From Kiritimatiella glycovorans (GTDB lineage: Bacteria; Verrucomicrobiota; Kiritimatiellia; Kiritimatiellales; Kiritimatiellaceae), in NCBI RefSeq assembly GCF_001017655.1, contig NZ_CP010904.1, positions 1,320,001 to 1,352,000 on the forward strand: 32,000 bases of DNA. The letters run 5' to 3'. Every line of letters begins with the position of its first letter. The stretch's first letter is position 1. Positions 6,772 through 27,989 of the stretch are shown piece after piece. The position numbers and the translations under genes were made by a program. The notes under the pieces were generated by a model, which searched no databases, was not told the DNA's origin, and saw only the letters and a program-made list of their open reading frames with translations.

Positions 6772-6799
6772 TTCTCTTAGCGTAGAAAAGGAGTCATTC

Positions 6800-11853: not shown

Positions 11854-13020
11854 TTAGTCGTTTTCCAGTTTTACCCACACGGCCCCGTCCTGTGACGATT
11901 TCACGACCGCCTCAATGAATCGCATGCCGCGAACCCCTTCGTCGACGGACGGGAAATCCGACCCGTCCGCGGAAGGGTTCCGGCCTTCCGCGTGGGCGCG
12001 GATCGCTTCCGCAAAGTTGACGTAGTGATTGGCGAAGGACTCGATGAACCCTTCCGGATGGCCGAACGGGATTCGCGTACACTTCGCGGCCGCCTCGCAT
12101 TTTTCGCCGACGTAGTCGTTGCCGCGCCGCCATATCTCCTCGGGCGCATTCAACTTGCGCACGTGCAGTGCATTCGGGTTTTCCTGGTGCCATTCCAGGC
12201 TCGCGTTTTCGCCGTGCACCCGAATCGCCAGGTTGTTCTCTTCTCCGATCGAGATCTGGCTGGCGTGGAGCAGCCCCTTCGCCCCGTTATCGAAGCGCAG
12301 CAGCATCTGGCCGTCGTCGTCGAGCGGCCGTCCCTCCACGAACGTCGAAAGATCCGCACACAATTCAGTGATCCCGATCCCGGCCACATATTCGGCGAGG
12401 TTCGCCGCATGGGTGCCGATATCGCCGATACAACCCGCAGCTCCGCTCTGTTTCGGATCCGTCCGCCAGCTCGCCTGCTGCACGCCTTCGCGCTCGATCG
12501 CCCGGGCCAGCCACCCCTGCGGGTACTGAACCACAATCTTGCGGATCTCCCCGAGATCACCCTGCCGAACCATTTCGCGGGCCAGTTTCACCATCGGATA
12601 GCCCGTATACACATGCATCAGGCCGAACACGAGTCCGCTCTCCCGCACCAGGTCGCGCAGTTCCACCGCCTCCGCCGACGTCATCGTCATCGGCTTCTCG
12701 CACATCACGTGAAAACCCGCTTCAAGCGCCGCCTTCGCGATCGGAAAATGCCAGTTGTTCGGCGTCGTCACGGAAACGAAGGATATGCGCTCGTCGGCGG
12801 AGCGCGCCGATTCGGAGGCCAGCATCGCCTTATAATCGTCATACACCCGCTCAGGATCCAGATCCAGCTCTCGCCCCATCGCCTGACTCTTTTCCGGGTC
12901 GATATCGAAAGCCCCGGCCGTAACTTCAATGTGGCCGTCCATGCGTGCCGCCTTCCGGTGCACTTCCCCGATGAATGCTCCGGGGCCGCCGCCGACCATC
13001 CCCATCTTCAAACGCTTCAT
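11854..13020 (-). CDS. Gfo/Idh/MocA-family oxidoreductase (cytoplasmic, no signal peptide)
   Basis: Start chosen at ATG 13020 (MKRLKMGMVGGGPGAFIGEVHR...) with an AAGGAG RBS; the track start at 13062 adds 14 unlikely residues. Family motifs include VSVTTPNNWHFPIAKAALEAGFHVMCEKPMT. Confidence 0.9.
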   Translation of the reverse strand: MKRLKMGMVGGGPGAFIGEVHRKAARMDGHIEVTAGAFDIDPEKSQAMGRELDLDPERVYDDYKAMLASESARSADERISFVSVTTPNNWHFPIAKAALEAGFHVMCEKPMTMTSAEAVELRDLVRESGLVFGLMHVYTGYPMVKLAREMVRQGDLGEIRKIVVQYPQGWLARAIEREGVQQASWRTDPKQSGAAGCIGDIGTHAANLAEYVAGIGITELCADLSTFVEGRPLDDDGQMLLRFDNGAKGLLHASQISIGEENNLAIRVHGENASLEWHQENPNALHVRKLNAPEEIWRRGNDYVGEKCEAAAKCTRIPFGHPEGFIESFANHYVNFAEAIRAHAEGRNPSADGSDFPSVDEGVRGMRFIEAVVKSSQDGAVWVKLEND

Positions 13021-13153
13021 GCCCGCTCTCCTTTTCAATGCCCGGTTCCGGTTTCCGACCACCGGCTGCTCCTATCGTCGCCTGTATACTGGTTTCGCCT
13101 GAGTCCTGCTTGTACAAATCTGCTTTATATTTGGACTTTTTCGTCATGCCTGC

Positions 13154-13891
13154 TCAATGAATCCGACGATACTCCTGCGGGGTGACCCCCTTCATCCGCT
13201 TGAACTGGCGGGTGAGGTGGCTGTGATCGTAGAACCCGGAGTCCTGCGCGATCCGGGAGATCGTATCGGCGGTTTCGAGCAGCGCGCGGCAGGCGTGGTT
13301 GACGCGGACCTGGATCAGGTAGTGGCGCGGCGTCATCTGGAACAGCCTGCGGAACTTCCGTTCGAACTGGCTGACGGACATGCCCGCCATTCTCGCCAGC
13401 ACCGGGACGTCGAGGGGCTCGGCGAAGTGCCGGTTGATGTATTCCACCACGGTGGTAAACACGGAATACGGCTCTAGGTTCGATTTGGATTCGTTGAGGT
13501 CGCGCGCGATGCCCGCGAGGCCGATCACTCCACCCTCGCGGTCGAACAGCGGAACTTTTGAGGTCACGAACAGGTTGTTGCGGCCGTCCATTTCCGGGGC
13601 GGGTTCGATGCGGTTCACGATGCGGTTGCCGGTCCGCATCACATAGGTGTCGTCCTTGATGTACCGCTCCGCCCGGTCCGGCGGAAAGAAGTCGTGGTCC
13701 GTCCGGCCGAGCAGCTCCTCCAGGCGGCTCAGTCCGCATTTTTCGAAAAACAACCGGTTCGCCATCACGAAGCGGCCCTCGCGGTTTTTGGCGAAGAAAA
13801 AAACGTCCGGAAGAAATTCGAACAGGGATCCCACCTGCGGATCGCTCGCCAGCCGCACCATAAAGGCCTGTTGATATTCAAGGGCGTCCAT
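13154..13891 (-). CDS. PAS-domain / AraC-family transcriptional regulator, 245 aa (paralog of 2002..2745)
   Basis: Same architecture as 2002..2745 and roughly 45% identity to it by eye (FFFAKNREGRFVMANR..., GRTDHDFF, SKVPLFDREGGVIGLAGIARD, GMSVSQFERKFRRLF..., GFYDHSHLTRQFKR). A 24-nt stretch at 13214-13237 is 23/24 identical to 2071-2094. Confidence 0.85.
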   Translation of the reverse strand: MDALEYQQAFMVRLASDPQVGSLFEFLPDVFFFAKNREGRFVMANRLFFEKCGLSRLEELLGRTDHDFFPPDRAERYIKDDTYVMRTGNRIVNRIEPAPEMDGRNNLFVTSKVPLFDREGGVIGLAGIARDLNESKSNLEPYSVFTTVVEYINRHFAEPLDVPVLARMAGMSVSQFERKFRRLFQMTPRHYLIQVRVNHACRALLETADTISRIAQDSGFYDHSHLTRQFKRMKGVTPQEYRRIH

Positions 13892-14001
13892 GCCGAAAAA
13901 TTACAAGAAATTGGCGAACGATTACAAGCACAGTATTGATGGAAGAGGCATACTTTTGAAATATTGCTGGCGTTTGGAATCCTTAATCCAGGGAGCGCAT
14001 C
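13892..14001. promoter_or_regulatory. Divergent promoter/operator region between PAS-AraC paralog 2 and the xylose-isomerase-like operon
   Basis: 110-bp AT-richer divergent intergenic region. Direct repeat ATTACAAG at 13900-13907 and 13921-13928, spaced 21 bp (two helical turns), the spacing typical of AraC-family direct-repeat half-sites. Confidence 0.4.
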
Positions 14002-14994
14002 ATGAGCCGACCGGTAACACTGTTCACGGGCCAATGGGCCGACATGGGGATCGATGAACTCGCGCGGAAGGCCGCGAAGTGGGGCTACGACGGGCTTGAG
14101 CTGGCCTGCTGGGGGGATCACTGCGATCCCGACCGCGGGGCGCAGGATGCCGCGTACGCGAGGGGGCGCCACGAGCTTCTGGCGAAGCATGGGCTGAAGT
14201 GTTTTGCGATCAGCAATCATCTCGCCGGTCAGCTTGTATGTGACCCGAACGACGATGCACGCACGGACGCCTTCGCGCCGGAGGACTGCGCGGGCGACGC
14301 GGAAAAGAAGCGCGAATGGGCCATCGAAACGACCAAGAACGCGGCGCGCACCGCAAAGAACATGGGCCTGTCCGTGGTCAACGGTTTCACCGGATCGCCG
14401 GTCTGGCACATGCTGTATTCGTTTCCGCCGCTGCCGCCGTCGGCGATCGACGACGGATTCGGGCGCTTCGCGGAACTCTGGAACCCCATCCTGGACGTCT
14501 TTGACGAGTGCGGCGTTAAGTTCGCGCTGGAAGTGCATCCCACGGAGATCGCCTTCGACCTCTACACCGCGAAGCGCGCCCTCGAGGCCCTGAATCACCG
14601 GGAAGCTTTCGGATTCAATTTCGATCCGAGCCATCTCGAGTGGCAGGGCATGGACCCGGTCAAGTTCATCGAAGCCTTTCCCGATCGGATCTATCACGTG
14701 CACATGAAGGACTGCGCGACGACGCTCGACGGCGTATCCGGCATCCTGGCCTCGCACCTCGATTTCGGCGACCCGCGGCGCGGATGGGATTTCCGCAGCG
14801 TGGGGCGCGGCGATGTCGACTTCGAGGCGATCATCCGGGCGCTGAACGCCATCGGCTACGACGGTCCGCTCTCGGTTGAATGGGAGGATGCCGCCATGGA
14901 TCGTGAACACGGTGCCGAGGAGGCCTGTCAGTATGTAAAGAACATCGACTTCCCGAAATCCGGCCGGGCCTTCGATGCCGCCTTCGGGGACTGA
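14002..14994 (+). CDS. xylose-isomerase-like TIM-barrel protein (sugar phosphate isomerase/epimerase family)
   Basis: 330 aa. Motifs: YDGLELACWGDH, NHLAGQLVCD, GFTGSPVW, ALEVHPTEIAFD, FNFDPSHL, HVHMKD, SVEWED. GGGAG RBS. Confidence 0.85.
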   Translation: MSRPVTLFTGQWADMGIDELARKAAKWGYDGLELACWGDHCDPDRGAQDAAYARGRHELLAKHGLKCFAISNHLAGQLVCDPNDDARTDAFAPEDCAGDAEKKREWAIETTKNAARTAKNMGLSVVNGFTGSPVWHMLYSFPPLPPSAIDDGFGRFAELWNPILDVFDECGVKFALEVHPTEIAFDLYTAKRALEALNHREAFGFNFDPSHLEWQGMDPVKFIEAFPDRIYHVHMKDCATTLDGVSGILASHLDFGDPRRGWDFRSVGRGDVDFEAIIRALNAIGYDGPLSVEWEDAAMDREHGAEEACQYVKNIDFPKSGRAFDAAFGD

Positions 14995-15028
14995 CGATGC
15001 GGGACGCGGGAGGTGAAGGAGGTGAGCG

Positions 15029-16327
15029 ATGAAAACGGGTAGTGTGAACCGCCGCGGGTTTGTTCGCGCCGGGGCGGCCGTGATCGGCGCACCGGCGATC
15101 ATCCCCGCTTACGTCCTGGGTGCTGAGGCCCCGAGTAACGACATCGTGATCGCCGCGATCGGCCAGGGCGGGATGGGCCGCGGAAATACGGCGAACCTGA
15201 TGCGTCGGAGAGACTGCCGCGTCGTGGCGGTCTGCGACGTCGATCCGCGCCGCCGGGCGGCGGGCAAGACGATGGTCGACAACTATTACGGCAACAAGGA
15301 CTGCCTGGCGACGGAAGACTACCTCGAGATCGTGGCCCGCGAGGATATCGATGCGGTCATGATCGCCCTGCCCGATCACTGGCACGCGCGGGCGGCGATT
15401 GATGTGCTTCGCTCGGGCAAGGATGTCTACGGCGAGAAGCCGGTCGCGCGCACCATTCGCGAGGGGCGCGCCATCTGTGACGCCGTCGAGCGGTATGGAC
15501 GAATCTGGCAGACGGGAAGCTGGCAGCGATCCCAGCGCAACTTCCTGATCGGGGCCGAAATGGTACACAACGGTGTTCTGGGTGAAATCCAGCGGGTGGA
15601 GGTCGGTATCCCCGGCGGCGTCCACGACAGTCCGCTCGTGCCGGTCACGCCCCCGCCGGAAGGATTCAACTACGAGCGATGGCTCGGTCCCGCCCCGTGG
15701 CGTCCCCACCGCGCGCTTGGCCGCGAGGGACGAACCATGCACTGGAACTGGCGCTGGATTCGCGATTACGGCGCGGGTTATCTCTCGGACTGGTGTCCGC
15801 ACCACCTCGACATCGCCCACTGGGGCATGGGTTACGACCGGACCGGGCCGGTGAAAATCACCGAGGCCCGGGGGATCTTCCCCGAAAGGGGGCTCTTCAA
15901 CACACCGGGGCAGTTCTACTTCAAGGCCCATTACGCCGATGGTCACATCATTGAAGTCGGCTGCCCGCCGGGCATGAATATGGGCACAAAATGGATCGGC
16001 GAACGGGGATCGATCCGTGTCAACCGCGGGGGACTGCTGGAAATCGATCCGCCTGAACTTCGTCACGAATACGGCCGGGGCAATTGGAAGGCACTGACCC
16101 GTTCCGTCAATCACCACGAGAACTTTGTCCGCTGTATCCGGTCGCGCCGAACGACCGTCGCCCCCGCCGAAGTCGGCCATCGCACGGCGTCGGTGGCCCT
16201 GCTTTGTGAAATCTCACTGCTGCTCGGCCGCGACGTGCACTGGGATCCTGAGCGCGAGAGTATTCTTAACGATCCGACGGCCAACGCCATGCTGGGCCGC
16301 ACGTATCGGGAACCCTGGAGCCTGTGA
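15029..16327 (+). CDS. Gfo/Idh/MocA-family oxidoreductase with Tat signal
   Basis: Tat motif NRRGFVRAGAAVIGAPA. Rossmann IVIAAIGQGGMGR. YGEKPVA motif. AGGAGG RBS. Confidence 0.9.
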   Translation: MKTGSVNRRGFVRAGAAVIGAPAIIPAYVLGAEAPSNDIVIAAIGQGGMGRGNTANLMRRRDCRVVAVCDVDPRRRAAGKTMVDNYYGNKDCLATEDYLEIVAREDIDAVMIALPDHWHARAAIDVLRSGKDVYGEKPVARTIREGRAICDAVERYGRIWQTGSWQRSQRNFLIGAEMVHNGVLGEIQRVEVGIPGGVHDSPLVPVTPPPEGFNYERWLGPAPWRPHRALGREGRTMHWNWRWIRDYGAGYLSDWCPHHLDIAHWGMGYDRTGPVKITEARGIFPERGLFNTPGQFYFKAHYADGHIIEVGCPPGMNMGTKWIGERGSIRVNRGGLLEIDPPELRHEYGRGNWKALTRSVNHHENFVRCIRSRRTTVAPAEVGHRTASVALLCEISLLLGRDVHWDPERESILNDPTANAMLGRTYREPWSL

Positions 16328-19275
16328 TGCGCATGAATCCCCGTGTCTTCTTTTTCACAGCCCTGTTCGTGGCCGTCCTGACGAGCCCCCCCGTCCCTTC
16401 CGTGGCCGCCCCGGCCCCCGACGTCCTGCCGGAGGTTCCCGCGGACCACGTCGCGAAGATCCGCGCCGCCCTCCCCTCCCCGGCCCCGGCCCCCGAAACC
16501 CCGCGCCGTATCCTGCTCTTTTGGCGTTGCGAGGGCTTCTATCACTCCGCCATTCCCTGGGCGAACCGGGCGATTCAGGAAATGGGGGCCATGAACAAGG
16601 CGTGGACCTGCGCGGTGAGTAAAGACATGGCGGTGTTCACGCCGGAACGTCTCGCCGAATACGATGTCGTCGTGTTCAACAGCACGACCCGTCTGCAGCC
16701 CACGGACGAACAGCTCCAAGCCCTGCTCGATTTCGTGCGCGGCGGAGGCGGAATCGTCGGCATTCATGCCGCCACGGACAATTTCTATTCCGATCCCGAA
16801 GCGGCGCAGATGATGGGCGGGCTGTTCAATAAACATCCCTGGCACTTCAAAGGGATGTGGTCATTCGTCCTCGACGATCCAGGCCACCGGCTCAACCAGG
16901 CCTTTGAAGAACTGACGTTTGAAGCGAGCGATGAAATCTACCAGTTCAAGGATCCCTACAGCCGGGAACGAGTCCGCGTGCTGACCCGGGTCGATCTCAG
17001 CCAGGCGTCCAATCTCGAGGTCCAGGGCCGCGAACGCGATGATCTCGATCACGCCATCACCTGGGTGCGCTCCGAGGGCTCAGGCCGCGTCTTTTACTTC
17101 GGATTCGGTCACAACAACGCCATCTACTGGAACAGGCCCCTGATGCGTCATCTTTATGACGGTCTTCGTTTTGCCGCCGGCGACCTCGAGGTCGATACGA
17201 CGCCGAGCGCGCAACGCGACGATCTGGACCGCATCGCCGGCTGGGCCTATGAACAGTCCCGGATGCCCTTCGAGCGCTTGCGAATCCGCTGGAATGAAGC
17301 CGACGATGCGGGACGCGCGAAACTCGAAGACCAGTTCACCGAGGCCCTGCGCAACACGCGATCCACCCTCGACGGCCGGCGCGAGATCTGTCGGCTGCTC
17401 GGCCACTCGGGTTCGGAGCGGGCCTGTGCCGCCCTCGCGGAAGCGCTGCGCCACCCGGATCTGCGCGACGAAGCCTGTATCGCACTCGGCGTTCATCCGA
17501 GTGCCGAGGCGGATGCGGCCCTCGTCGATTTTCTGGCCGATTCCGGGGACGCTCATGCGATCAGTGTGATCAACGCCGCGGGACGGCGACGGGTGAACGC
17601 GGCCGTACCGCAGCTCGCCCGGAGACTCGCGTCTGAAGACGAAGCCCTTGTCAAGGCATCAAGCTACGCGCTGGCTACCATCGCCAGCCCGCCGGCGATC
17701 GAGACGCTCATGGAGGCCTACACCGCCGAGGAAAATTCCATCCTTGAGCCGGCTTTGCTGGATGCGGCCTATCGCCTCGCAGAAGCGGGATCTGCGGAGA
17801 ACGCCCGCCGTCTGTTCGAGGGGCTGACAGGCCGGGGCTCCCCGCAGAGCCGCGCGGCCGCACTCCCCGGACTGGTTTCCCTCCGCGGCCGGGAAATGAT
17901 CCCCGACCTTTTCAAGGCCCTGCGAGAAGGTTCCGACCCCGTGGCGGAAACGGCCGCCCGGATCTTGCCCGAACTCCTCACCCCGTCCACGGTGCGCCCG
18001 CTGGCCCGTACCCTGGATTCGCTGCCGGACGACCGCGTCCCGATGGCGCTGGAGGTGCTTGCGCGGGTGGCGCCTGACGAAACCCTGCCGATCCTCCGTT
18101 CGATGCTGGACACAGACGAGCCGTCCTCGGCCTCTATGGCCCTGGCAATCATCGGCCGGTTCGGCGAACGTGAGGACCTCGCCCGCTGTTTTGACTGGGC
18201 GGCCCACGAGGATGAAGGGGCCTCCGGCCCGGCCCGCGAAGTCCTGAGTTATGATCATCTTCCGGGGACGGATAAGTTTCTGCTGAAGAAACTCGATCCC
18301 GACACCGCACCCGAAGATACCGCCCTGGCGATCGAACTGCTCTCCAAACGCGAACACCCCGAGCTGCTGGACCGTCTGCGCGACCCGGCCTGGTATGATG
18401 ACCACATCACCGCTTCCGCGGCGTTGAACGCTCTCAAGGAACACGCGACCCGGGATGATCTCGGTCCGGTTATTCAGCTTTTCTTTGCGGTGAACAATCG
18501 CACGGCGCCCAAACTGGCGGGCGTTATTCGCAAAATTGCCCAGGAATACAAGGATCAGAAAGCCGTGCTCGACGGATACCGGCGCGCCCTGGACCATGCA
18601 CGGGAAATGCATTCCACGGCCCGCATGCGGATTTTGATGCAGTTGGTCGACTATCTCGATATCCCCGCTCACCTCAAAGGCGAGGCATGGATGGCGCTCA
18701 TCCGGGAGTGCGAGGACAAGGCCCTTCGCCTCGAGGCGATCCAACTGCTGGCCCGCTCGGCTCCTTCCGCGAGTGCCCTCGATTTTATCTCCGGCCTCCA
18801 CGGTGACGCCGACTTGACCGCCGTCATTGAACGGGCCCACCGCTCCATTGAGAAGGCCCTCTCCGGACCGCCTGAACTCACGGCATCCCATGGGGGCGGC
18901 ACCCTTAAGGCCCTCTTCACCCCCGAAACCGAGGACCGATGGACCAGCCACCAGTCGCGGGAACCGGGCATGTGGCTGCTCATCGATTTCCGGGTGCCCC
19001 GCCGGGTGGGATCGATCACCCTGGATGCGTCCGGCTCGAAAAATGATTTTCCGAATCAATATGAGGTGTATACCGACGACGAGCAGGAGGCTTCGGCCGC
19101 CCCGCGGCTGAGGGGTGAGGGATCCACGGTGACAAAAATCGATCTCGGCGGCGTGGAAACGCAGTTCGTCAAGATTGTCAACCAGTCCGAGGCCCACCAG
19201 TGGTGGTCCATTCACGACCTGCGCATCGACGGCGAATCGCTCTCCTCCATGAAGAACCACGATGCCGGGAAGTAG
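16324..19275 (+). CDS. secreted ThuA-like domain / HEAT-repeat / discoidin (F5-8 type C) fusion protein, 983 aa
   Basis: Signal peptide (VFFFTALFVAVLTSPPVPSVAA). ThuA-like class-I amidotransferase-like fold (RILLFWRCEGFYHS...YDVVVFNSTT...GGGGIVGIHAATD...FNKHPWH...ITWVRSEGSGRVFYFGFGH). Central HEAT-like repeats. C-terminal discoidin (MWLLIDFRVPRRVGSITLDASGS...QYEVYTDD...FVKIVNQSEAHQWWSIHDLRIDG). The start is either GTG 16324 or ATG 16327, and both overlap the upstream stop. Confidence 0.85.
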   Translation: MMRMNPRVFFFTALFVAVLTSPPVPSVAAPAPDVLPEVPADHVAKIRAALPSPAPAPETPRRILLFWRCEGFYHSAIPWANRAIQEMGAMNKAWTCAVSKDMAVFTPERLAEYDVVVFNSTTRLQPTDEQLQALLDFVRGGGGIVGIHAATDNFYSDPEAAQMMGGLFNKHPWHFKGMWSFVLDDPGHRLNQAFEELTFEASDEIYQFKDPYSRERVRVLTRVDLSQASNLEVQGRERDDLDHAITWVRSEGSGRVFYFGFGHNNAIYWNRPLMRHLYDGLRFAAGDLEVDTTPSAQRDDLDRIAGWAYEQSRMPFERLRIRWNEADDAGRAKLEDQFTEALRNTRSTLDGRREICRLLGHSGSERACAALAEALRHPDLRDEACIALGVHPSAEADAALVDFLADSGDAHAISVINAAGRRRVNAAVPQLARRLASEDEALVKASSYALATIASPPAIETLMEAYTAEENSILEPALLDAAYRLAEAGSAENARRLFEGLTGRGSPQSRAAALPGLVSLRGREMIPDLFKALREGSDPVAETAARILPELLTPSTVRPLARTLDSLPDDRVPMALEVLARVAPDETLPILRSMLDTDEPSSASMALAIIGRFGEREDLARCFDWAAHEDEGASGPAREVLSYDHLPGTDKFLLKKLDPDTAPEDTALAIELLSKREHPELLDRLRDPAWYDDHITASAALNALKEHATRDDLGPVIQLFFAVNNRTAPKLAGVIRKIAQEYKDQKAVLDGYRRALDHAREMHSTARMRILMQLVDYLDIPAHLKGEAWMALIRECEDKALRLEAIQLLARSAPSASALDFISGLHGDADLTAVIERAHRSIEKALSGPPELTASHGGGTLKALFTPETEDRWTSHQSREPGMWLLIDFRVPRRVGSITLDASGSKNDFPNQYEVYTDDEQEASAAPRLRGEGSTVTKIDLGGVETQFVKIVNQSEAHQWWSIHDLRIDGESLSSMKNHDAGK

Positions 19276-19304
19276 TATCCATCATTAACCGAAAGGGTGT
19301 GCCG

Positions 19305-19823
19305 ATGAAGAAAAGATTTATGAGCGACTGGACCGGGAAAACCTGGGCCTTTCTCACGCTTCGCATCTGGCTGGCGATGCGCGCCATCGTCACCGGCATC
19401 GAGAAGTTTACCGGCACAAAGATTGAAGAACAGCCGCTGCTCGACGAATTCGGCGAACCCGACATCAGCGGCGCTATGGTCGAGGTCAAGACCAAGGTCT
19501 ACGGATTCGAGCACTACCACGCGGTCGATCCGTCCCTGGCCGAAGCCCTGGGCAAGGAGCCCCTGCTGCCGGACTTCTTTCTCACCCCCTACTACGCCGT
19601 GCTCGGTTACGCGCTGATCGGACTGGGCCTGATGCTGCTCGTCGGACTGTTCACGCGCACGTCGCTCTTTCTGATGGGCCTTCTGTACACCTCGCTCACC
19701 TTCGGCCTCATCCTGATCCAGCAGGACGGCGGCGTGGCCTGGCTGGGCATTCACATCCTCATGATCGCCCTGGCCCTCTCCTGGGCGGACGACAACCGAC
19801 TGGCCCTGACGCAAAAGGGATAA
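19305..19823 (+). CDS. small 4-TM membrane protein, DoxX-like (tentative)
   Basis: Start chosen at ATG 19305 (MKKRFMSDW...); the track start at 19200 overlaps the previous gene. One N-terminal TM (FLTLRIWLAMRAIVTGIEKF, DoxX-like), a loop of about 60 aa, then three C-terminal TMs. Confidence 0.45.
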   Translation: MKKRFMSDWTGKTWAFLTLRIWLAMRAIVTGIEKFTGTKIEEQPLLDEFGEPDISGAMVEVKTKVYGFEHYHAVDPSLAEALGKEPLLPDFFLTPYYAVLGYALIGLGLMLLVGLFTRTSLFLMGLLYTSLTFGLILIQQDGGVAWLGIHILMIALALSWADDNRLALTQKG

Positions 19824-19848
19824 ACCCGCAACCATACGGAGCGAAACC

Positions 19849-21183
19849 ATGACGAATGAAACCACGAGACGCGAATTCATGCAGAAGAGCGGTACGGCCG
19901 CGGCCGGACTCTGGCTGGCGGCGTCGCACGCCGCGCGGGTTCGGGCGGCGGAGACCTCCAGCGCCGGCCAGATCAATGTCGGCCTCGTCGGGGTCGGCGA
20001 ACAGGGCCGCGTGCTGCTCAACGCGGCCAAGGACCTCCCCGGACTGAACTTCACGGCGGTCTGCGATATCTGGGAGTACAGTCAAAAATACGGGCGCAAC
20101 TACCTGCGCAAATTCGGACACGATCCCGCCGTCTACACCGACTACCGCGAAATGCTCGAGAAACAGACCGACCTCGACGCCGTGATCGTCGCCACGCCCG
20201 ACTTCGTGCATCACGAAATTACGATCGCCGCGCTGGAGGCCGGCAAAGACGTCTACTGCGAAAAGGCGATGTCCAACGACATCGAGAAGGCGCGCGCCAT
20301 GGTCCGGGCGATGAAATCGACCGGGCGCCTGCTGCAGATCGGCCATCAGCGCCGCAGCAACCCGCGCTACATCCACACCTACCACAATCTTCTGAAGAAG
20401 GCGCGGATTACCGGCACGATGACCAACGCCAACGCGCAGTGGAATCGCGCCAAAGTCGAACCGCGCGGGTGGCCGGATAAGTACACGATCCCGCAGGATG
20501 TGCTTACAAAATTCGGATATGCCGACATGCAGCAGTTCCGCAACTGGCGCTGGTACAGGAAATACGGCGGCGGACCCATCTTTGATCTCGGCGCCCACCA
20601 GATCGACATCTTCAACTGGTTCTTCGGCGGAGCCCCCAGGACCGTGACCGCCGACGGGGGCAACGACTTCTACAAGGACTGGGAGTGGTACGACAACGTC
20701 ATGGCCATCTTCGAGTACGATACGCCCGACGGGACGGCCCGCGCCTTCTACCAGACCCTCAACACCACCAGCGCCGGGGGCGGCTACTGGGAGATGTTCA
20801 TGGGCACCGAGGGCACCGTCAAAATCGCCGAGAATCCGAAGTGGACGCGGGTCTACCGCGAAGCGCACGCGCCGGACTGGGAGAAGTGGTTCAAGCTGCA
20901 CTATCTCGAAAAGATGGACATGCCCGGACCGCAGCAGGCCGAGGCCGGCAAGGTCGATGTGCGCGAGACCGCGCCGCTCGTGGCCTTCAAAATCCCGGTC
21001 ACGCTGAGTAAGCCGATCCACCAGCCGCACCTGGAAAACTTCTTCGCGGCCATGCGCGGCGAAGAGGAACTGAACTGCCCGGCCGACCACGCCTTCGAGA
21101 GCGAAGTCGCGGTGTTCAAGGTCAACCCGGCCATCGAAGCCGGACGCAAGATGACCATCACGGACGAGGATCTGGCGGTCTAG
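19849..21183 (+). CDS. Gfo/Idh/MocA-family oxidoreductase with Tat signal
   Basis: Tat motif TRREFMQKSGTAAAGLWLAAS. Rossmann INVGLVGVGEQGR. YCEKAMS motif. Confidence 0.9.
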   Translation: MTNETTRREFMQKSGTAAAGLWLAASHAARVRAAETSSAGQINVGLVGVGEQGRVLLNAAKDLPGLNFTAVCDIWEYSQKYGRNYLRKFGHDPAVYTDYREMLEKQTDLDAVIVATPDFVHHEITIAALEAGKDVYCEKAMSNDIEKARAMVRAMKSTGRLLQIGHQRRSNPRYIHTYHNLLKKARITGTMTNANAQWNRAKVEPRGWPDKYTIPQDVLTKFGYADMQQFRNWRWYRKYGGGPIFDLGAHQIDIFNWFFGGAPRTVTADGGNDFYKDWEWYDNVMAIFEYDTPDGTARAFYQTLNTTSAGGGYWEMFMGTEGTVKIAENPKWTRVYREAHAPDWEKWFKLHYLEKMDMPGPQQAEAGKVDVRETAPLVAFKIPVTLSKPIHQPHLENFFAAMRGEEELNCPADHAFESEVAVFKVNPAIEAGRKMTITDEDLAV

Positions 21184-21216
21184 CGGGCGCTGTTCCGGGA
21201 TCAAGGAAGGGCACGA

Positions 21217-23835
21217 ATGGCATCCACGAAGCTGGAATTCACTACCGGCATATCAGGACTGGATCGAATGCTCCACGGGCTGCGGCCCGGGGACAATGTC
21301 GTCCTGCAGGTCGGTCGCATGGACGAGTATTCGCCGCTGGTGGAACCGTTCTACCGCGCGAACCTCGCCGAGGGTAAAAAGCTCATCTACTTCCGCTTCG
21401 CGCGTCACCGGCCGCTGATCCCCGACGACGCCGGCGCCGAGGTGCACCACCTCCATCCCGAGGCGGGGTTCGAGCGGTTCATCACCGAGACGCTCGATAT
21501 CATCGAGCGGGCGGGGCCCGGCGCCTGTTACGTCTTCGACTGCCTCTCGGATCTGGCGGTCGACTGGTACAGCGACCGGATGCTGGGCAACTTCTTCATG
21601 CTCGCCTGCCCCTACCTCTACCGGCTGGACACGATCGCCTACTTCGCGCTGCTGCGTAACAATCACTCCTCGCTGGCCATCGACGCGATCCGCCGGACCG
21701 CGCAGGTCGTGATGACGGTCTACCGCAACCACCGCGAGCTGTACGTGCACCCCCAGAAGGTCGACCAGCGCTACTCGCCGACCATGTACGTCCTGAACCA
21801 CTGGAAGGGCGAGGCGTTCCAGCCGGTGACCGACAGCGCCGTGACCGCGGACATCCTCAGCGACACGACGCAGCCGTGGCTGGAATTCGCCAACCGCCGC
21901 CCCGAAGTGTGGACCCGCACGGTGATGCGTGCGCAGGAGGTCTGCGAGCAGCTGACCTCGCAGGACGCGGAGCCCGGGGACGACGAGGAACTCTACCTGC
22001 GGCTGTTGCGTATGGCGGTCTCGCGCGATGAACGGTTCATCGATCTCTGCCGGCGCTATTTCTCGCTCAGGGATCTGCTGGCGATCGTGCAGCGCATGAT
22101 CGGCACGGGGCTGATCGGCGGCAAATCGCTGGGCATGCTCCTGGCCCGCGCCATGCTCTGCGCGAAAAACCCGGCCTGGCAGGCGAAGCTCGAAGTCCAC
22201 GATTCCTTCTTCGTGGGCTCGGATGTCTTCTACACCTATCTCGTGCAGAACAAATGCTGGTGGCTGCGGCGGCGCAAGGCCGACAGCACCATGGAAGAGG
22301 TTCTCGACAATGCGGGCGCCGCCCGGGAGAAAATCCTCGCCGGCGCGTTTCCCGAGGACATCCGCAACCAGTTCATGGAGATGCTGAACTACTTCGGACA
22401 GTCGCCGATCATCGTCCGCTCCAGCAGCCTGCTCGAGGACAACTACGGCAATTCCTTCTCGGGCAAGTACGATAGCGTGTTCTGCACGAATCAGGGTACG
22501 CCGGAGGAGCGGTTCGAGGAGCTGCTCTCCGCCATCCGGACCGTCTATGCCAGCACCATGAACCGGGAGACGCTGACGTATCGCTCCGACCGCGGGCTGC
22601 TGGACCGGGACGAGCAGATGGCGCTGCTGATTCAGCGCGTTTCGGGGAACGCCCACGAAGGCCTCTTCTTCCCCCATATGGCCGGCACGGCGTTTTCGTT
22701 CAATCCCTACGTCTGGAACCGGGACATCGATCCCGAGACCGGCATCGTGCGGCTGGTCGCCGGTCTGGGGACGCGGGCGGTCGACCGCACCGAGGACGAC
22801 TACACCCGGCTCGTGGCTCTGAACGCCCCGATGAAGCAGCCGTTCGACGACGAGGACGCGCGCCGTTTCTCTCAACGGCGCATGGACGTACTCGACCTGG
22901 AGAACAATCAGCTCGACAGTTTTCCGGTCGAAGACATCATGCGCCGGCTGCCCGAACGCCTCCTGCCGCATCTCGCGGTCCGCGACAGCCGGGTCGAGGA
23001 GTTCGCGCGTCAGCGCGGTGAAATGCGCACCGCCTGGCGGCTGAGCTTCGATCGCACCCTGAGCGAAGATACGTTCGTGAAAGACCTGCGCGACATGCTG
23101 CACATACTGCACGAGGCCTACCGCTACCCGGTCGATGTCGAATTCACGGCCAACATCACCGGCGACCGCAAACTGCTTTACAACCTGGTCCAGTGCCGTC
23201 CGTTCCAGGTCCAGGTCAGCGCCCAGGGGCACCTCGTCCAGTGGCCGGAGTCCCTCACCGCCGAGGACACGCTGCTCGAGAGCAGCGGCCCCGTGATCGG
23301 CCCCGGCCTGGCGGGCGAGATCGACCGCATTCTCTACGTGGTCCCGGAAGCCTACTCGAAGCTGTCGACCCAGGACCGCTACGGCGTGGCCCGGCTGATC
23401 GGCCGGATCACCCATCTCGAGACGGAGGAACGCCGCAAGACCCTGATGCTGATCGGACCCGGCCGCTGGGGTACGCGATCGCCGTCGCTGGGGGTGCCGG
23501 TCACCTTCGCCGAGATCAACCGCACGTCCGTGTTGTGCGAACTGGCGATGATGCACGAGGGCCTGGTGCCGGACGTCTCACTGGGCACGCATTTCTTCAA
23601 CGACATGGTCGAGGCCGGACTGATCTGCCTGGCCGTGTTCCCGGGCCGGGAGGGGAACAGCTTCTCGCCGGAATTCCTGAAGTCCTCCCCCAATCGACTG
23701 GTCGAGGTGCTTCCGGACGCCCTGCGCTGGCAGGAGGTGCTGCGGGTGGTCGACGGGGATCAGTTCGGCAAACATCAGCGGCTGTATTTCCGCGCCGACC
23801 CGATGAAACAGCGCGCGGTCTGTTACAAGGCCTGA
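21217..23835 (+). CDS. fusion protein: degenerate KaiC/RecA-like N-domain (no Walker A) + PPS/PPDK-type ATP-binding (PPDK_N) domain + uncharacterised C-terminal domain, 872 aa
   Basis: The N-terminus FTTGISGLDRMLHGLRPGDNVVLQVG resembles the KaiC-family opening TGIPGLDxxLGGGLPxGxxxLIxG, but GRMDEYS replaces GxxGxGKT. The central region carries PPDK_N motifs: LIGGKSLGMLLA, PIIVRSSSLLEDNYGNSFSGKYDS, MALLIQRV, GTAFSFNP, VAGLGTRAVD, YPVDVEFT...LVQCRP. No GGxTSHAA phosphohistidine signature was seen by eye. Confidence 0.7.
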   Translation: MASTKLEFTTGISGLDRMLHGLRPGDNVVLQVGRMDEYSPLVEPFYRANLAEGKKLIYFRFARHRPLIPDDAGAEVHHLHPEAGFERFITETLDIIERAGPGACYVFDCLSDLAVDWYSDRMLGNFFMLACPYLYRLDTIAYFALLRNNHSSLAIDAIRRTAQVVMTVYRNHRELYVHPQKVDQRYSPTMYVLNHWKGEAFQPVTDSAVTADILSDTTQPWLEFANRRPEVWTRTVMRAQEVCEQLTSQDAEPGDDEELYLRLLRMAVSRDERFIDLCRRYFSLRDLLAIVQRMIGTGLIGGKSLGMLLARAMLCAKNPAWQAKLEVHDSFFVGSDVFYTYLVQNKCWWLRRRKADSTMEEVLDNAGAAREKILAGAFPEDIRNQFMEMLNYFGQSPIIVRSSSLLEDNYGNSFSGKYDSVFCTNQGTPEERFEELLSAIRTVYASTMNRETLTYRSDRGLLDRDEQMALLIQRVSGNAHEGLFFPHMAGTAFSFNPYVWNRDIDPETGIVRLVAGLGTRAVDRTEDDYTRLVALNAPMKQPFDDEDARRFSQRRMDVLDLENNQLDSFPVEDIMRRLPERLLPHLAVRDSRVEEFARQRGEMRTAWRLSFDRTLSEDTFVKDLRDMLHILHEAYRYPVDVEFTANITGDRKLLYNLVQCRPFQVQVSAQGHLVQWPESLTAEDTLLESSGPVIGPGLAGEIDRILYVVPEAYSKLSTQDRYGVARLIGRITHLETEERRKTLMLIGPGRWGTRSPSLGVPVTFAEINRTSVLCELAMMHEGLVPDVSLGTHFFNDMVEAGLICLAVFPGREGNSFSPEFLKSSPNRLVEVLPDALRWQEVLRVVDGDQFGKHQRLYFRADPMKQRAVCYKA

Positions 23836-23849
23836 AGTAGGAGCGACGC

Positions 23850-25106
23850 TTGAGCCTGTTGATTCACAATGTGCGGCTGGACGGGAACCCGACCGATATA
23901 CGCATTGACCGGAACCGGTTTACCCGGATCGCACCCGGGCAGGATGAACCTGCGGACACCGTGATCGACGGCGCGGGCTTCGCGATTCTTCCGACCTTTC
24001 ACAACGGCCACACGCATGCGGCGATGACGCTGCTGCGCGGGTATGCGGACGACATGGATCTCGAGACCTGGCTGAACCGGCACATCTGGCCGCTGGAATC
24101 GAAGTTGCGCGAAGAGGACGTATACAACGGGGCGCGGCTCGCATGCGCGGAAATGATCCGTTCCGGAACCACGTTTTTCAATGACATGTACTGGCATCCG
24201 CACGGCACGGCGCGCGCGGCGGACGCCATGGGCCTGCGCGCCGATATCTCGGCGGTGTTCATCGATTTTCACGATCCCGACAAGGCGGATGAGGAGCGAC
24301 GAAACAACGACGCGCTGCTGCGCGCTGCGGACCGGTACCCGGACCGGATCCGCATCACGCTCGGACCTCACGCCGTGTACACGGTATCCGAAGCTTCATT
24401 GCGCTGGGCGGCCGAAGTCTCGGAGTCGCGGGCATGCGACATCCACATCCACCTCGCGGAGACGGAAGAAGAGTGCCGGAACGCGCAGGAGTCCTTCGGC
24501 TGCTCGCCGGTCGCCCATCTCGACCGCAACGGCGTGCTGGGACCGAGGACGGTCGCGGCGCATGTGAACTGGGTGGATGAAAAAGAGATGGATCTGCTCG
24601 CCGAGCGCGGGGTACGCGTGGCCCACAATCCCGCCTCCAACATGAAACTGGCTTCGGGGTCATTCCCCTACGCCGACCTGGCGGGGCGCGGCATAAAGGT
24701 CTGCCTCGGGACGGACGGTGCCTCGTCCAACAACAATCTGGACATGGGCGAAACGATGAAACTGGCCGCGCTGCACGCCAAGCTGCGCTACCGCGACCCG
24801 ACGGTGCTCGGTGCCGAAGAGGTGTTCGAGCTGGCCACCGGCGGCGCTGCGAACCTCTTCGCCCGCGAGTCGGGACGGATCCGCGAAGGCATGCTCGCCG
24901 ACGCGATGCTCGTCAACCTGGGCCACCCCCGCCTCAATCCCGGGTACAACCTTATCTCAGACATGGTCTACGCGGCCGACAGCTCCTGCATCGATACCGT
25001 CATCTGCGACGGCCGCATCCTGATGCGCGGGGGGGTCATCGAGGGAGAAGAGGAAATCGTCGCCAAGGCGCGCGAGAGCCGGGACTACCTTCTGGGCCGG
25101 CCATGA
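23850..25106 (+). CDS. mtaD: amidohydrolase of the MtaD / 5'-methylthioadenosine-S-adenosylhomocysteine deaminase family
   Basis: TTG start with an AGGAG RBS. Motifs: FHNGHTHAAMTLLRGYADDMDLETWL...IWPLE, EMIRSGTTFFNDMY, HIHLAETEEE, AAHVNWV, VAHNPASNMKLASG, LGTDGASSNNNLDM. Confidence 0.75.
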   Translation: MSLLIHNVRLDGNPTDIRIDRNRFTRIAPGQDEPADTVIDGAGFAILPTFHNGHTHAAMTLLRGYADDMDLETWLNRHIWPLESKLREEDVYNGARLACAEMIRSGTTFFNDMYWHPHGTARAADAMGLRADISAVFIDFHDPDKADEERRNNDALLRAADRYPDRIRITLGPHAVYTVSEASLRWAAEVSESRACDIHIHLAETEEECRNAQESFGCSPVAHLDRNGVLGPRTVAAHVNWVDEKEMDLLAERGVRVAHNPASNMKLASGSFPYADLAGRGIKVCLGTDGASSNNNLDMGETMKLAALHAKLRYRDPTVLGAEEVFELATGGAANLFARESGRIREGMLADAMLVNLGHPRLNPGYNLISDMVYAADSSCIDTVICDGRILMRGGVIEGEEEIVAKARESRDYLLGRP

Positions 25107-25113
25107 AAAAGGA

Positions 25114-25440
25114 TCGCGCCTTCGGCGCTTCACGCGCGGGTTCGGCCTGCGTCTCTTGGGTAGGGCGTGCTCTCCGAGCGCGCCGCTCGTTTGCGGACGG
25201 CCCGGAGGTCCGCCCCTACCCTCACGCACGGGTTCGACCTGCGTCTCTTGGGTAGGGCGCGATTCCATCCCCCGATTCAAGGAATTCGAGTACGGGTACG
25301 ATATTCCCCCGGGGGTCCCCATGTGGAACTCAGGTTCCTCCCCCCTCAACCCACCTTCATGCTCTTCATGTCCTTCATGGTTAATCCCTATCCCCCCCCG
25401 ATCTCCCGCATCCCACCTTTTCCGGGAAACCTTCCATAAA
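25114..25440. repeat. Composite intergenic repeat, copy B (hairpin, M1, inverted M1 fragment, M1, M2, pyrimidine-rich tail with 3x CTTCATG)
   Basis: Hairpin GCGCC-ttc-GGCGC at 25116-25128. M1 at 25130-25169 and 25222-25261. Near-perfect inverted pair GGGTAGGGCG (25158-25167) / CGCCCCTACCC (25211-25221). M2 at 25256-25334. CTTCATG at 25355, 25364 and 25373 (9-bp period). Same orientation as copy A. Confidence 0.85.
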
Positions 25441-25479
25441 CATCCACGAAGAACCATGAACCCTGGGGCGCGGCGTGCT

Positions 25480-26757
25480 TCAGCCACCGCCGCCGGCGAC
25501 AAAGTACAGCACGAGGCCCGTCGCTATTACGCTCGCCACGCAGGGCCACAGATAGCGATAGATCCGGTGAAAACGCGCCTCGAAGTGATTGCGCGTAAGC
25601 ACGAAGCACAGATGCATCGGGGAGAGCATCATGCCTGCGTACCCGAAGGCGAAGGCCAGCGCCAGTACCGGCAGGGGAAACGAGTCGCTGCCGCCGTACA
25701 GGCCGATCACCAGCGGAAAGGCGGTGCCGGCGAAGCCCACGGCGATGCCGGTAACGAGCCCCGCGATGAACGGCAGCGCAGCCGACACGACCAGGGCCGG
25801 GACCCCGCCGGTCATCATCTCCTCCGCCGCCCGCGGCAGCAGACCCGAGACCGAGAGCATATGCTTGAAGATCAGCACGCCCGTAAGGGTGCCGAGAATG
25901 CCGCGGGCCTTGCGTGTCCTGAGTTGAGCAAACAGCCTGCGGCGCGATTCGCGGGGTTCGCGCAGCACGACCGGTACGCCGACCGCCGCAAGCGCGATCA
26001 GCACGCCGGTCATCTGGACGGCCCCCGTATCCCCCGCCGGTAACACCGCCTGCAGCAGTTCCGGTATGAGCAGGGCGCCCGCCATCACCAGCCCCAGCAT
26101 CAGGAGCAGAAAAACCGCGCGCTGCGTGTTCGCCGCAAGCCCCGGAACCGGTGCATTTAACTGGCCCCGGTGCGGGCGGACGAGAAACAGGTACCCCGCC
26201 CCGAACGACACGAGCGTAAACGGCGCCTGGAGGAGAAAGAAACGCCAGTACTCGACCGAGGTCACGGAAAGGGTGACCATGATGACCGGGTAGAGCGGCC
26301 ACCAGTATTCCCAGACGTGGCGGAACCAGTAGTTGACGGCGGATTTCCACTCCGGCGTCCAGTGGTCTTCGGACGCCGTCTGCCCCACGAGGGGAGCTGA
26401 AAACAGTGCGCCGCCCGGCATCGGCACCAGGCCGATCGCCGCGGGCGCGATCATCACGCCGACTTCGCGGCCGCCCCATTTGCGCGTGAGCGCCATCAGC
26501 GATTCCGCGTTATGCGGCTCGGTCATGATTCTCCCGAACTCGGTGATGAGTACGGTGATCGCCAGGAGAAGCCAGAGTTCGGGAAGCGCAAACGTCCCGG
26601 CGAAATCGAGCGGCACGCGCGTCCCGCGCCCCGCGAGCAAAGCCAGTGCGACCCCTCCGGCCGCGAGCGCCGCGCCCAGGGAGAGACCCGCCCGGGTTGC
26701 GGCCAGCACGGCCGCGAAAACCCCGAGGATGATCAAAGTCGAGCCGAACGGCATCAC
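25480..26757 (-). CDS. polytopic membrane protein, DUF401-like (putative transporter, function unknown)
   Basis: 425 aa with at least 10 hydrophobic segments. The overall pattern and the C-terminal SPMHLCFVLT motif match my recollection of DUF401/TIGR00529. The start (GTG 26757 or ATG 26754) overlaps the lipB stop. Confidence 0.55.
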   Translation of the reverse strand: MMPFGSTLIILGVFAAVLAATRAGLSLGAALAAGGVALALLAGRGTRVPLDFAGTFALPELWLLLAITVLITEFGRIMTEPHNAESLMALTRKWGGREVGVMIAPAAIGLVPMPGGALFSAPLVGQTASEDHWTPEWKSAVNYWFRHVWEYWWPLYPVIMVTLSVTSVEYWRFFLLQAPFTLVSFGAGYLFLVRPHRGQLNAPVPGLAANTQRAVFLLLMLGLVMAGALLIPELLQAVLPAGDTGAVQMTGVLIALAAVGVPVVLREPRESRRRLFAQLRTRKARGILGTLTGVLIFKHMLSVSGLLPRAAEEMMTGGVPALVVSAALPFIAGLVTGIAVGFAGTAFPLVIGLYGGSDSFPLPVLALAFAFGYAGMMLSPMHLCFVLTRNHFEARFHRIYRYLWPCVASVIATGLVLYFVAGGGG

Positions 26758-27914: not shown

Positions 27915-27989
27915 TGGAGGCGCGGACCGGATTCGAACCGGTGATACATGGATTTGCAATCCACCGCCTTACCACTTGGCTACCGCGCC
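27915..27989 (-). tRNA. tRNA-Cys (anticodon GCA)
   Basis: Folded by hand as a cloverleaf: acceptor GGCGCGG/CCGCGCC; 3-bp D stem with an A13:A22 mismatch; anticodon stem GTGGA/TCCAT with loop TTGCAAA; T arm ACCGG-TTCGAAT-CCGGT; discriminator U73 (a CysRS identity element); encoded CCA. Confidence 0.92.

Follow-up and report, generated by a model that had tools for sequence, protein, structure and literature searches.

The 872-residue protein examined here is encoded in a stretch of 32,000 nucleotides of the Kiritimatiella glycovorans genome (contig NZ_CP010904.1), which we refer to as the window. The protein can be placed in the PPDK_N phosphotransferase superfamily, to which it adds a new C-terminal domain (C-domain) and a new input module, an N-terminal KaiC-like domain that lacks the Walker A motif. 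Two features, namely the near-invariant G-(T/S)-H motif of the C-domain and the occurrence of related genes in glutamate/glutamine assimilation loci, had been missed by an earlier note on this DNA, which was made from the letters alone. We see about an even chance that the protein is an ATP-driven regulator or protein modifier in nitrogen (glutamate) assimilation, probably acting via a phosphohistidine. In agreement with the earlier note, which knew of no characterised member, our literature search found no paper on this architecture, on a characterised member or on a link between glutamate dehydrogenase (GDH) and a dikinase.

Domain architecture of the 872-residue protein

The central ATP-grasp domain, which the earlier note had identified from its nucleotide-binding motifs, gives the only Pfam match of the protein (Table 1). 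Across 30 homologues, GGK303, R401-SSS-x-x-E407-D408, E642 and Q659-x-R661 are invariant. Alignment of the family profile with E. coli PpsA by hhalign covered only PpsA 45-341 (prob 95.9), where the PpsA motifs VRSS..ED, DIEW and QARP were matched. Because the invariant residues belong to the nucleotide/Mg site of PPDK, the domain looks catalytically competent as judged from its sequence.

The remaining parts of a phosphoenolpyruvate (PEP) synthase are not detected. The phosphohistidine swivel domain (PEP-utilizers, GGxTSHAA) gave no Pfam match, and the C-domain profile aligned with PpsA at an hhalign prob of 0.2. The PEP/pyruvate TIM barrel (PEP-utilizers_C) likewise gave no Pfam match, the protein ending ~200 residues after the ATP-grasp domain. 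Among the NCBIfam models, TIGR01418 scored 50.9 bits against a cut-off of 739.75, and PRK06241 and PRK06464 were far under their cut-offs. The models for PEP synthase, rifampicin phosphotransferase (RPH) and PigC/RedH match the ATP-grasp domain only, at 3-7% of their cut-offs (NF041857 for RPH: 36 bits against 999). PRK05849 reached E 1.7e-5 over residues 388-448, i.e. 60 residues, and the best match among PDB sequences was RPH (5hv6, E 0.083). Since the canonical swivel domain and the TIM barrel are lacking, the protein is not PpsA; Pfam, NCBIfam and hhalign all rule out an ordinary PpsA, in line with the earlier note, which by eye had found neither domain.

Comparison with the characterised enzymes delineates what is shared. 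PpsA and PPDK have a homologous N-terminal PF01326 ATP-grasp domain with the GGK, VRSS..ED, D-x-E-F/W and Q-x-R-P motifs, and presumably the ATP-driven phosphorylation via an enzyme-bound His is also common to them and the K. glycovorans protein. The latter, in contrast, is devoid of the GGxTSHAA swivel and the TIM barrel, adds the KaiC-like domain and the 200-residue C-domain, and reaches about 7% of the equivalog cut-off. RPH, Cj1418, PigC/RedH and glucan-water dikinase similarly reuse the PPDK_N ATP-grasp domain on non-pyruvate substrates, and as far as is known all keep a canonical His swivel together with a dedicated substrate domain. The K. glycovorans protein, however, matches the RPH/Cj1418 type in the ATP-grasp domain only, the central substrate domain and the swivel being undetectable.

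The N-terminal domain was predicted by AlphaFold2 (AF2) with a pLDDT of 85.3. A Foldseek search with this model retrieved KaiC (7s65_B, E 8.5e-12, prob 1.0, TMq 0.56) and FlaH (4yds, E 5.9e-10, TMt 0.68), with 822 PDB matches at E<=1e-3. In a profile search against PDB sequences, the KaiC-like protein PH0284 came first (E 0.027), followed by KaiC (0.32 and 0.92). The likeness to KaiC is one of fold: the scan with the Pfam KaiC/ATPase model (PF06745) that the earlier note had proposed gave no match at E<=10 in the window protein, whose residues 1-295 are without any Pfam match, nor at E<=1 in 22 members of the family. The similarity to PH0284 lies at the N-terminal 'TGIPGLD...G-hhhh' strand, at the profile level, and VVLQVGRMDEY faces the P-loop GGPGTGKT. 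As the earlier note had seen, a Walker A P-loop, GxxxxGK[T/S], is absent; the aligned position is VVLQVGRMDEYS, and by their consensus none of the 30 aligned homologues has a G-K-T/S there. The invariant YVFD108 fits the hhhhD pattern of a Walker B strand, an equivalence suggested by the strand order in the model. Taken with the model, the N-domain has the KaiC/RecA fold, has lost Walker A and the catalytic Glu pair, and retains a Walker-B-like YVFD.

KaiC-like ATPases such as PH0284 and FlaH/ArlH share the RecA/KaiC fold of residues 1-205. Unlike KaiC, which is a double-domain hexameric clock ATPase, the domain here is single, is fused to an ATP-grasp domain and is without Walker A or the catalytic Glu. 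Weak matches to PAXNEB (Elp4) in 4 of the 22 members (best 6.6e-4) and to MEDS in 3 of the 22 would fit a degenerate, sensor-type RecA domain, and point to the branch of inactivated KaiC relatives (iKaiC, Elp4/PAXNEB, MEDS). The linker that follows is predicted to be helical. Its last helices belong to the core module, because standalone core proteins, e.g. P0148, have them at the N-terminus as well.

The ~200-residue C-domain, which the earlier note was unable to place, gave no match in Pfam and no significant match in the PDB profile search. Its AF2 model is confident (pLDDT 90.9, pTM 0.90), and Foldseek nevertheless returned nothing at E<=0.001 (PDB best E 0.1, BFVD best 0.36; TM<=0.26), with no PPDK, PEPS or EI among the 50 PDB matches listed. 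The C-domain profile, for which the window protein served as the reference, recovered 1947 representatives among 1.84 billion cluster representatives, always at or near the C-terminal end of the module. Directly after the ATP-grasp domain it carries the motifs PGR(W)G(T/S)...GVPV...E...SxG(T/S)HFF. Over 280 domain instances, little or no variation is seen at G749, R750, G759, E775, S788 and H792.

We regard the PGRWGT loop as a candidate phosphate-binding loop and His792 as a candidate phospho-carrier or catalytic His. In the AF2 model His792 is the first residue (N-cap) of helix 121-128. Known phosphohistidines, e.g. His15 of HPr, are located at helix N-termini, and the PPDK site reads T-S-H; the G-(T/S)-H motif resembles this canonical phosphohistidine site and could replace it. 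Two other assignments of the C-domain were rejected. A PurE/AIRC-like flavodoxin fold had been hinted at by a PDB profile match to 6o55 (E 0.57) and by AIRC matches in 2 of 30 members at E~0.1, but hhalign against E. coli PurE gave a prob of 13% over 31 columns and no PurE appeared in the Foldseek list. A divergent swivel-His domain is supported by neither hhalign nor Foldseek, and is left only as functional convergence.

Conservation and genomic neighbourhood

At least 7998 homologues were found, with about 51-63% identity across bacterial and archaeal phyla (54-63% over the full length in the homologue search). Such conservation, exceeding 50% identity between Bacteria and Archaea, is unusual. 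Scanning one genome per species yielded at least 561 loci, of which 80, with 51-58% identity and from more than 10 phyla, were kept for the analysis of context. They span Verrucomicrobiota, Planctomycetota, Omnitrophota, Fibrobacterota, Spirochaetes, Elusimicrobiota, Deltaproteobacteria, Gemmatimonadota, Binatia, Methanomassiliicoccales and Bathyarchaeia. Their flanking open reading frames (ORFs) were clustered de novo and the clusters confirmed by Pfam.

GdhA, GltB, GltD or type III glutamine synthetase (GS-III) was present in the available flank of 52/80 loci, and in 39/52 where the flank was at least 12 kb, usually directly adjacent. In at least 21 loci such a gene is co-directional and within 300 bp. 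Counted separately over the 80 loci, the neighbours are GdhA (33), GltB (27), GltD (24), GlnQ-like ABC ATPase (9), GS type III (glnA, 8), NrpR (7), GAF-ANTAR, CarB and NadE (5 each), CarA, PurF and AmtB (4 each) and PII (3). Two Omnitrophota loci have the order GS3-NadE-GltB-GltD-[KaiC-PPDK gene]-CarA-CarB-PurF. The nitrogen-linked loci include those of the closest relatives of the window protein (L001-L008) as well as a metagenome-assembled genome (MAG) of Kiritimatiellia (L026), which has gdhA and nrpR. We estimate that, in genomes of a few Mb, chance alone would bring a single-copy gene within 10 kb in less than 1% of cases.

The earlier note had tied the protein to the deaminase downstream and to the sugar oxidoreductases upstream of it in the window, and had named an absence of conserved synteny with the deaminase as a refutation. 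When the window neighbours were searched by tblastn within 10 kb of the 80 related loci, the deaminase turned up in 0/80 and a Gfo/Idh/MocA gene in 1/80, so that this tie is not conserved and the stated refutation applies to this part of the note. The relocation of the gene in K. glycovorans, to a place behind the sugar-oxidoreductase string and before the deaminase, is lineage-specific.

The pair of ATP-grasp domain and C-domain is the evolutionary core, which occurs alone, duplicated, or fused to REC, to a Pol-beta-type nucleotidyltransferase (NTase) or to the inactivated KaiC-like domain. Carriers of the C-domain include standalone proteins of ~580-640 residues and a 1654-residue protein ending in a Pol-beta nucleotidyltransferase. 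The ~580-residue sister family has at least 6957 matches and the ~1000-residue REC-fused family at least 7942, the C-domain being present in both. Against a REC-fused protein the C-domain HMM gave E 6e-21, with the motifs GVGRWGS and SQGTHFF. Double-module forms of ~1470-1510 residues have the order [ATP-grasp + C-domain] + [inactivated KaiC + ATP-grasp + C-domain].

The sister families lie directly downstream of GDH genes in 7/7 contexts. The order GDH, 580-residue core, 1060-residue core with NTase was seen in 5/5 contexts examined, with a further case in L090, and REC-core came after GDH in 2/2. Locus L090 contains three GDH paralogues, two of which are each paired with PPDK_N-core genes. 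REC-'pyruvate phosphate dikinase' regulators thus have the ATP-grasp and C-domain core and the GDH adjacency in common with the present family; they differ in having REC rather than the inactivated KaiC as the input, and constitute a separate, also uncharacterised, subfamily. Response regulators that combine REC with 'pyruvate phosphate dikinase', and an 'iKaiC' domain, are listed as signalling parts by Galperin et al. 2018 (PMC5847659).

Several details of these loci were recorded in addition. The GDH/core operon (L084, L086, L087, L088, L089, L090) consists of a GDH-family gene of ~428 codons, a ~580-residue PPDK_N + C-domain protein and a ~1060-residue protein composed of an N-terminal region, PPDK_N, C-domain and Pol-beta-type nucleotidyltransferase, with start and stop codons that abut or overlap. 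A calcineurin-like phosphoesterase (Metallophos) gene adjoins the operon in 4 loci, and in P0188 the 580- and 1060-residue proteins are joined into a single chain. Genes for REC-PPDK_N proteins (~1000 residues, annotated 'CheY-like' or 'histidine kinase') lie at L084 14024-17050(-), L088 905-3841, L090 7001-10000 and L091 7001-9979; they follow the GDH gene directly (about 60-150 bp) in L088, L090 and L091, and a GDH gene is nearby in L084. A convergent Fic/DOC-domain gene (possible AMPylase) stands nearly end-to-end with the KaiC-PPDK gene in L048, L054, L055, L064, L068, L071, L077, L078 and L080, which are deltaproteobacterial, Deferrimicrobia, Gemmatimonadota and Binatia loci, mostly with gdhA next and aconitase a few kb on. 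In Geobacter sp. OR-1 (L092) the double-module gene sits between a 1149-residue alpha-amylase-family gene and glucose-6-phosphate isomerase (PGI), and at another double-module locus the gene comes after a PAS histidine kinase and before phosphofructokinase (PFK; the loci concerned are L092 and L094). The double-module clade may be linked to carbohydrate flux.

Proposed function and competing explanations

For the regulator or protein modifier that we favour, the following course can be envisaged. The ATP-grasp domain would bind ATP and move a phosphoryl or pyrophosphoryl group onto His792, with the invariant R750 and T753 of the PGRWGT loop helping to hold the phosphate; the C-domain would thereby take the place of the missing swivel domain. 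The inactivated KaiC would serve as a ligand-sensing and/or ring-forming (oligomerisation) input module, at the position taken by REC in the sister family. The phosphoryl group might then go on to a nitrogen-assimilation target, most likely a protein: GDH, glutamate synthase (GOGAT) or glutamine synthetase (GS).

The protein might therewith be an ATP-driven counterpart of Enzyme I-Ntr (EI-Ntr, PtsP) of the nitrogen phosphotransferase system (nitrogen-PTS), tuning glutamate synthesis to carbon/nitrogen or energy status. The analogy would be functional, i.e. an N-terminal sensory domain that governs His autophosphorylation and a link to nitrogen status; Enzyme I-Ntr responds to the nitrogen-status signals glutamine and 2-oxoglutarate. 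By contrast, the K. glycovorans protein has no GAF or PEP-utilizers domain in Pfam, and its donor would be ATP via the ATP-grasp domain instead of PEP.

Several points weigh against this proposal. The phosphohistidine role of His792 is one that we infer, and the C-domain has no similarity to swivel domains detectable by hhalign or Foldseek. Gene neighbourhood does not discriminate between a regulator and a metabolic enzyme. The window itself holds no nitrogen-assimilation gene, the nitrogen context is missing from about a third of the 80 loci, and no such gene is near the short-form P0028. The contexts of the sister families derive from metagenomes that resemble one another (probably Acidobacteriota) and do not count as independent samples. 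Moreover, a uniform context for the double-module clade was sought and rejected, as it adjoins alpha-amylase/PGI, PurLQF/PFK or no informative neighbour; because this clade lies outside the nitrogen loci, the link may be to central carbon/nitrogen metabolism more broadly.

The alternative that survives best is a dikinase or kinase for small molecules of nitrogen metabolism, in which a metabolite such as Gln, Glu or 2-oxoglutarate is phosphorylated (ATP -> AMP + Pi + X-P) and the inactivated KaiC acts in allostery or oligomerisation. The operon partners gltBD, carAB, purF and nadE are all glutamine users, and in the model the C-domain (~200 residues) appears big enough for a substrate pocket plus the His. 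A precedent for a PPDK_N-family enzyme acting on a nitrogen metabolite is the L-glutamine kinase Cj1418, which phosphorylates the amide N of L-glutamine and was once annotated as PEP synthase/PPDK (PMC10971088). The fusions to REC, inactivated KaiC and NTase and the one-to-one pairing with GDH paralogues, however, look more like signalling. Enzymes of the Cj1418 type are known to keep the canonical C-terminal His domain, which is absent here, and the PRK05849 match is confined to the short segment given above. We also know of no core pathway that needs such a phosphorylated intermediate. We favour the regulator or protein modifier and consider the small-molecule kinase doubtful, though it has a real precedent in Cj1418.

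A non-catalytic scaffold, with both nucleotide-binding modules used only for ligand sensing or for GDH/GOGAT assembly, seems improbable. The KaiC-like domain is clearly inactivated, and the very high conservation of surface-type motifs, e.g. DWYSDRMLGNFF, might stem from protein-protein interfaces; against this, the ATP-grasp domain keeps its invariant nucleotide-binding motifs, and the C-domain shows an invariant His, Arg and Glu across the 280 instances, which is typical of catalysis.

Marginally less probable still is the model of the earlier note, an ATP-dependent phosphotransferase acting on a glycan or nucleoside-like molecule and tied to the sugar oxidoreductases and the MtaD-like deaminase. 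The enzyme class is reasonable in view of the invariant ATP-grasp motifs; the substrate is not supported, and the model as such is largely refuted by the synteny counts given above, the Kiritimatiellia MAG having gdhA and nrpR instead. What speaks for it is the local arrangement, with a Gfo/Idh/MocA gene 33 nt before, the amidohydrolase 14 nt after and no terminator-like site, together with the double-module relatives beside alpha-amylase/PGI in Geobacter and near PFK. Glucan-water dikinase provides a PPDK_N precedent, whereas Pfam detects no carbohydrate-binding module or other extra domain in the protein.

An ordinary PEP synthase (pyruvate, water dikinase) can practically be dismissed: PPDK_N is present and the public names say so ('phosphoenolpyruvate synthase' at NCBI for the K. 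glycovorans protein, P0001, 855 residues, 100% identical; similar at JGI), but the PEP-utilizers and TIM-barrel domains are missing and the TIGR01418 score is far too low. Equally remote is a component of anti-phage defence, in which KaiC-like and ATP-grasp parts do occur and to which a marginal PDB sequence match to a TIR-domain protein (E 0.18) might point, since there is no PADLOC match and no viral structural match (BFVD), related loci have housekeeping nitrogen genes as neighbours, and the sequences are very highly conserved across phyla, as defence genes rarely are.

A bolder form of the regulatory proposal, which we put forward tentatively and hold to be rather unlikely as a whole, is that the core constitutes an unrecognised ATP-driven system of phosphohistidine signalling or protein modification with interchangeable inputs (inactivated KaiC, REC, GAF-like/NTase), which directly controls GDH, GOGAT and/or GS. 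If so, it would be a major nitrogen-regulatory mechanism in bacteria of the Planctomycetes-Verrucomicrobia-Chlamydiae (PVC) group, Acidobacteriota, Fibrobacterota, Spirochaetes, Deltaproteobacteria, Omnitrophota and several archaeal lineages, and the C-domain would have a phosphocarrier fold of a new kind. In these lineages, how ammonium assimilation is controlled post-translationally is, to our knowledge, essentially uncharted. Should the family prove to be the missing regulator or modifier of GDH/GOGAT, nitrogen-regulation biology would gain a new branch and the PPDK ATP-grasp domain a new use. We likewise know of no mechanism for the reversible in-vivo inactivation of Bacteroides GDH, a phenomenon for which our literature search gave no confirmation. 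Thousands of genomes carry the gene misnamed as PEP synthase / pyruvate, water dikinase, and the misnaming inflates the predicted gluconeogenic capacity in reconstructions of PVC, Omnitrophota, Fibrobacterota and methanogen MAGs.

The locus in Kiritimatiella glycovorans

Table 1. Features of the 872-residue ORF and its immediate neighbours (positions in the window).
Feature	Position	Strand	Remarks
Gfo/Idh/MocA oxidoreductase	19849..21183	+	33 nt before the start of the 872-residue ORF
Shine-Dalgarno sequence AAGGAAGG	21204..21211	+	6 nt upstream of ATG 21217
KaiC-like/PPDK_N/C-domain gene	21217..23835	+	872 residues plus stop, ATG start; iKaiC-like domain, helical linker, PPDK_N ATP-grasp, novel C-domain
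RecA/KaiC-fold core (predicted), catalytically degenerate	21217..21831	+	residues 1-205; AF2 model, Foldseek, PDB profile search
Walker A (GxxxxGKT/S) position, reads NVVLQVGRMDEYS	21295..21333	+	no Gly-Lys-Thr; PH0284 alignment
KaiC catalytic EE position, YFRFARH	21388..21408	+	YVALEEH in PH0284; A-R here (FARH vs LEEH)
Walker-B-like strand ACYVFDCLS and DWYSDRMLGNFF	21523..21597	+	D108 invariant; DWYSDRMLGNFF is the most conserved N-domain motif
Helical linker (predicted)	21832..22101	+	residues 206-295; AF2 model
PPDK_N ATP-grasp nucleotide-binding domain (PF01326)	22111..23226	+	residues 299-670; Pfam E 6.6e-49, sole Pfam match
ATP-grasp motifs	GGK 22117-22125, RSSSLLED 22417-22440, VDVEFT 23131-23148, QCRP 23191-23202	+	invariant columns
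Family-specific alpha/beta C-domain	23230..23832	+	residues 672-872; no Pfam model, no detectable solved structural homologue
PGRWGT loop	23458..23475	+	G749 in 280/280, R750 in 279/280 domain instances
SLGTHFFND motif	23578..23604	+	His792 codon CAT 23590-23592; His 278/279, S788 279/280, T/S791 265/279
Amidohydrolase (TRZ/ATZ, MtaD-like)	23850..25106	+	TTG start 14 nt past the stop of the 872-residue ORF; AGGAG 7 nt upstream; Pfam Amidohydro_1 4.3e-63

The RefSeq/NCBI gene model starts at Met18 (codon 18, 21268) and thereby loses the family-invariant G11 and D16. Residues 10-16 (TGxxGLD) are kept across the family. Because of these conserved residues and the strong Shine-Dalgarno sequence before ATG 21217, the longer start is the right one, and the deposited start lies 17 codons late.

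The deaminase ORF downstream begins where the earlier note had placed it. Against NCBIfam it stays below all curated cut-offs, the best being PRK06038 (442 against 609), and the 5'-deoxyadenosine deaminase model gives 282.6 against 522. The gene certainly belongs to the amidohydrolase superfamily, its MtaD-like specificity being putative. Because no terminator-like site separates the oxidoreductase, the 872-residue ORF and the amidohydrolase, the three genes are probably co-transcribed here; the promoter/terminator scan was otherwise uninformative. A sigma-54 promoter upstream was considered and rejected, with matches in the window at chance level (24 against 25.2 expected), and Rfam found no riboswitch.

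The plus-strand gene string ends with the deaminase (region 25106-25480). A GC-rich hairpin with a T-run lies on the minus strand at 25116-25128, in the convergent gap after the deaminase, past which the minus strand carries DUF401, an LplA/B-like protein, tRNA-Cys, GalK, PanC, PanB and HPPK. Positions 5434-8587 and 11854-21183 are dense in Gfo/Idh/MocA oxidoreductases that partially match the glycoside 3-dehydrogenase (BT_2158) model; a Tat-like N-terminus is present in at least one of these oxidoreductases (5434-6771). Accompanying them are a ThuA-HEAT-F5/8C protein, a protein with HEAT and 3-keto-disaccharide-hydrolase domains, a xylose-isomerase-like TIM barrel and two PAS-AraC regulators. 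From these gene assignments, both regions look like a periplasmic 3-keto-glycoside sugar-oxidation locus.

Between them lies a putative 569-residue ORF (9439-11148, +) that has no Pfam match and whose N-terminus is Arg-rich and of low complexity; the ORF overlaps with a short tandem repeat, (AGAATC)n (9532-9585), in the stretch of highest AT-skew in the window (0.176). ARAGORN called a tRNA-Ser(CGA) at 911-991 (+), inside a DUF481 ORF on the opposite strand and without Rfam gathering-score support, and this call is probably a false positive. For tRNA-Cys(GCA) at 27915-27989 (-), ARAGORN and Rfam agree.

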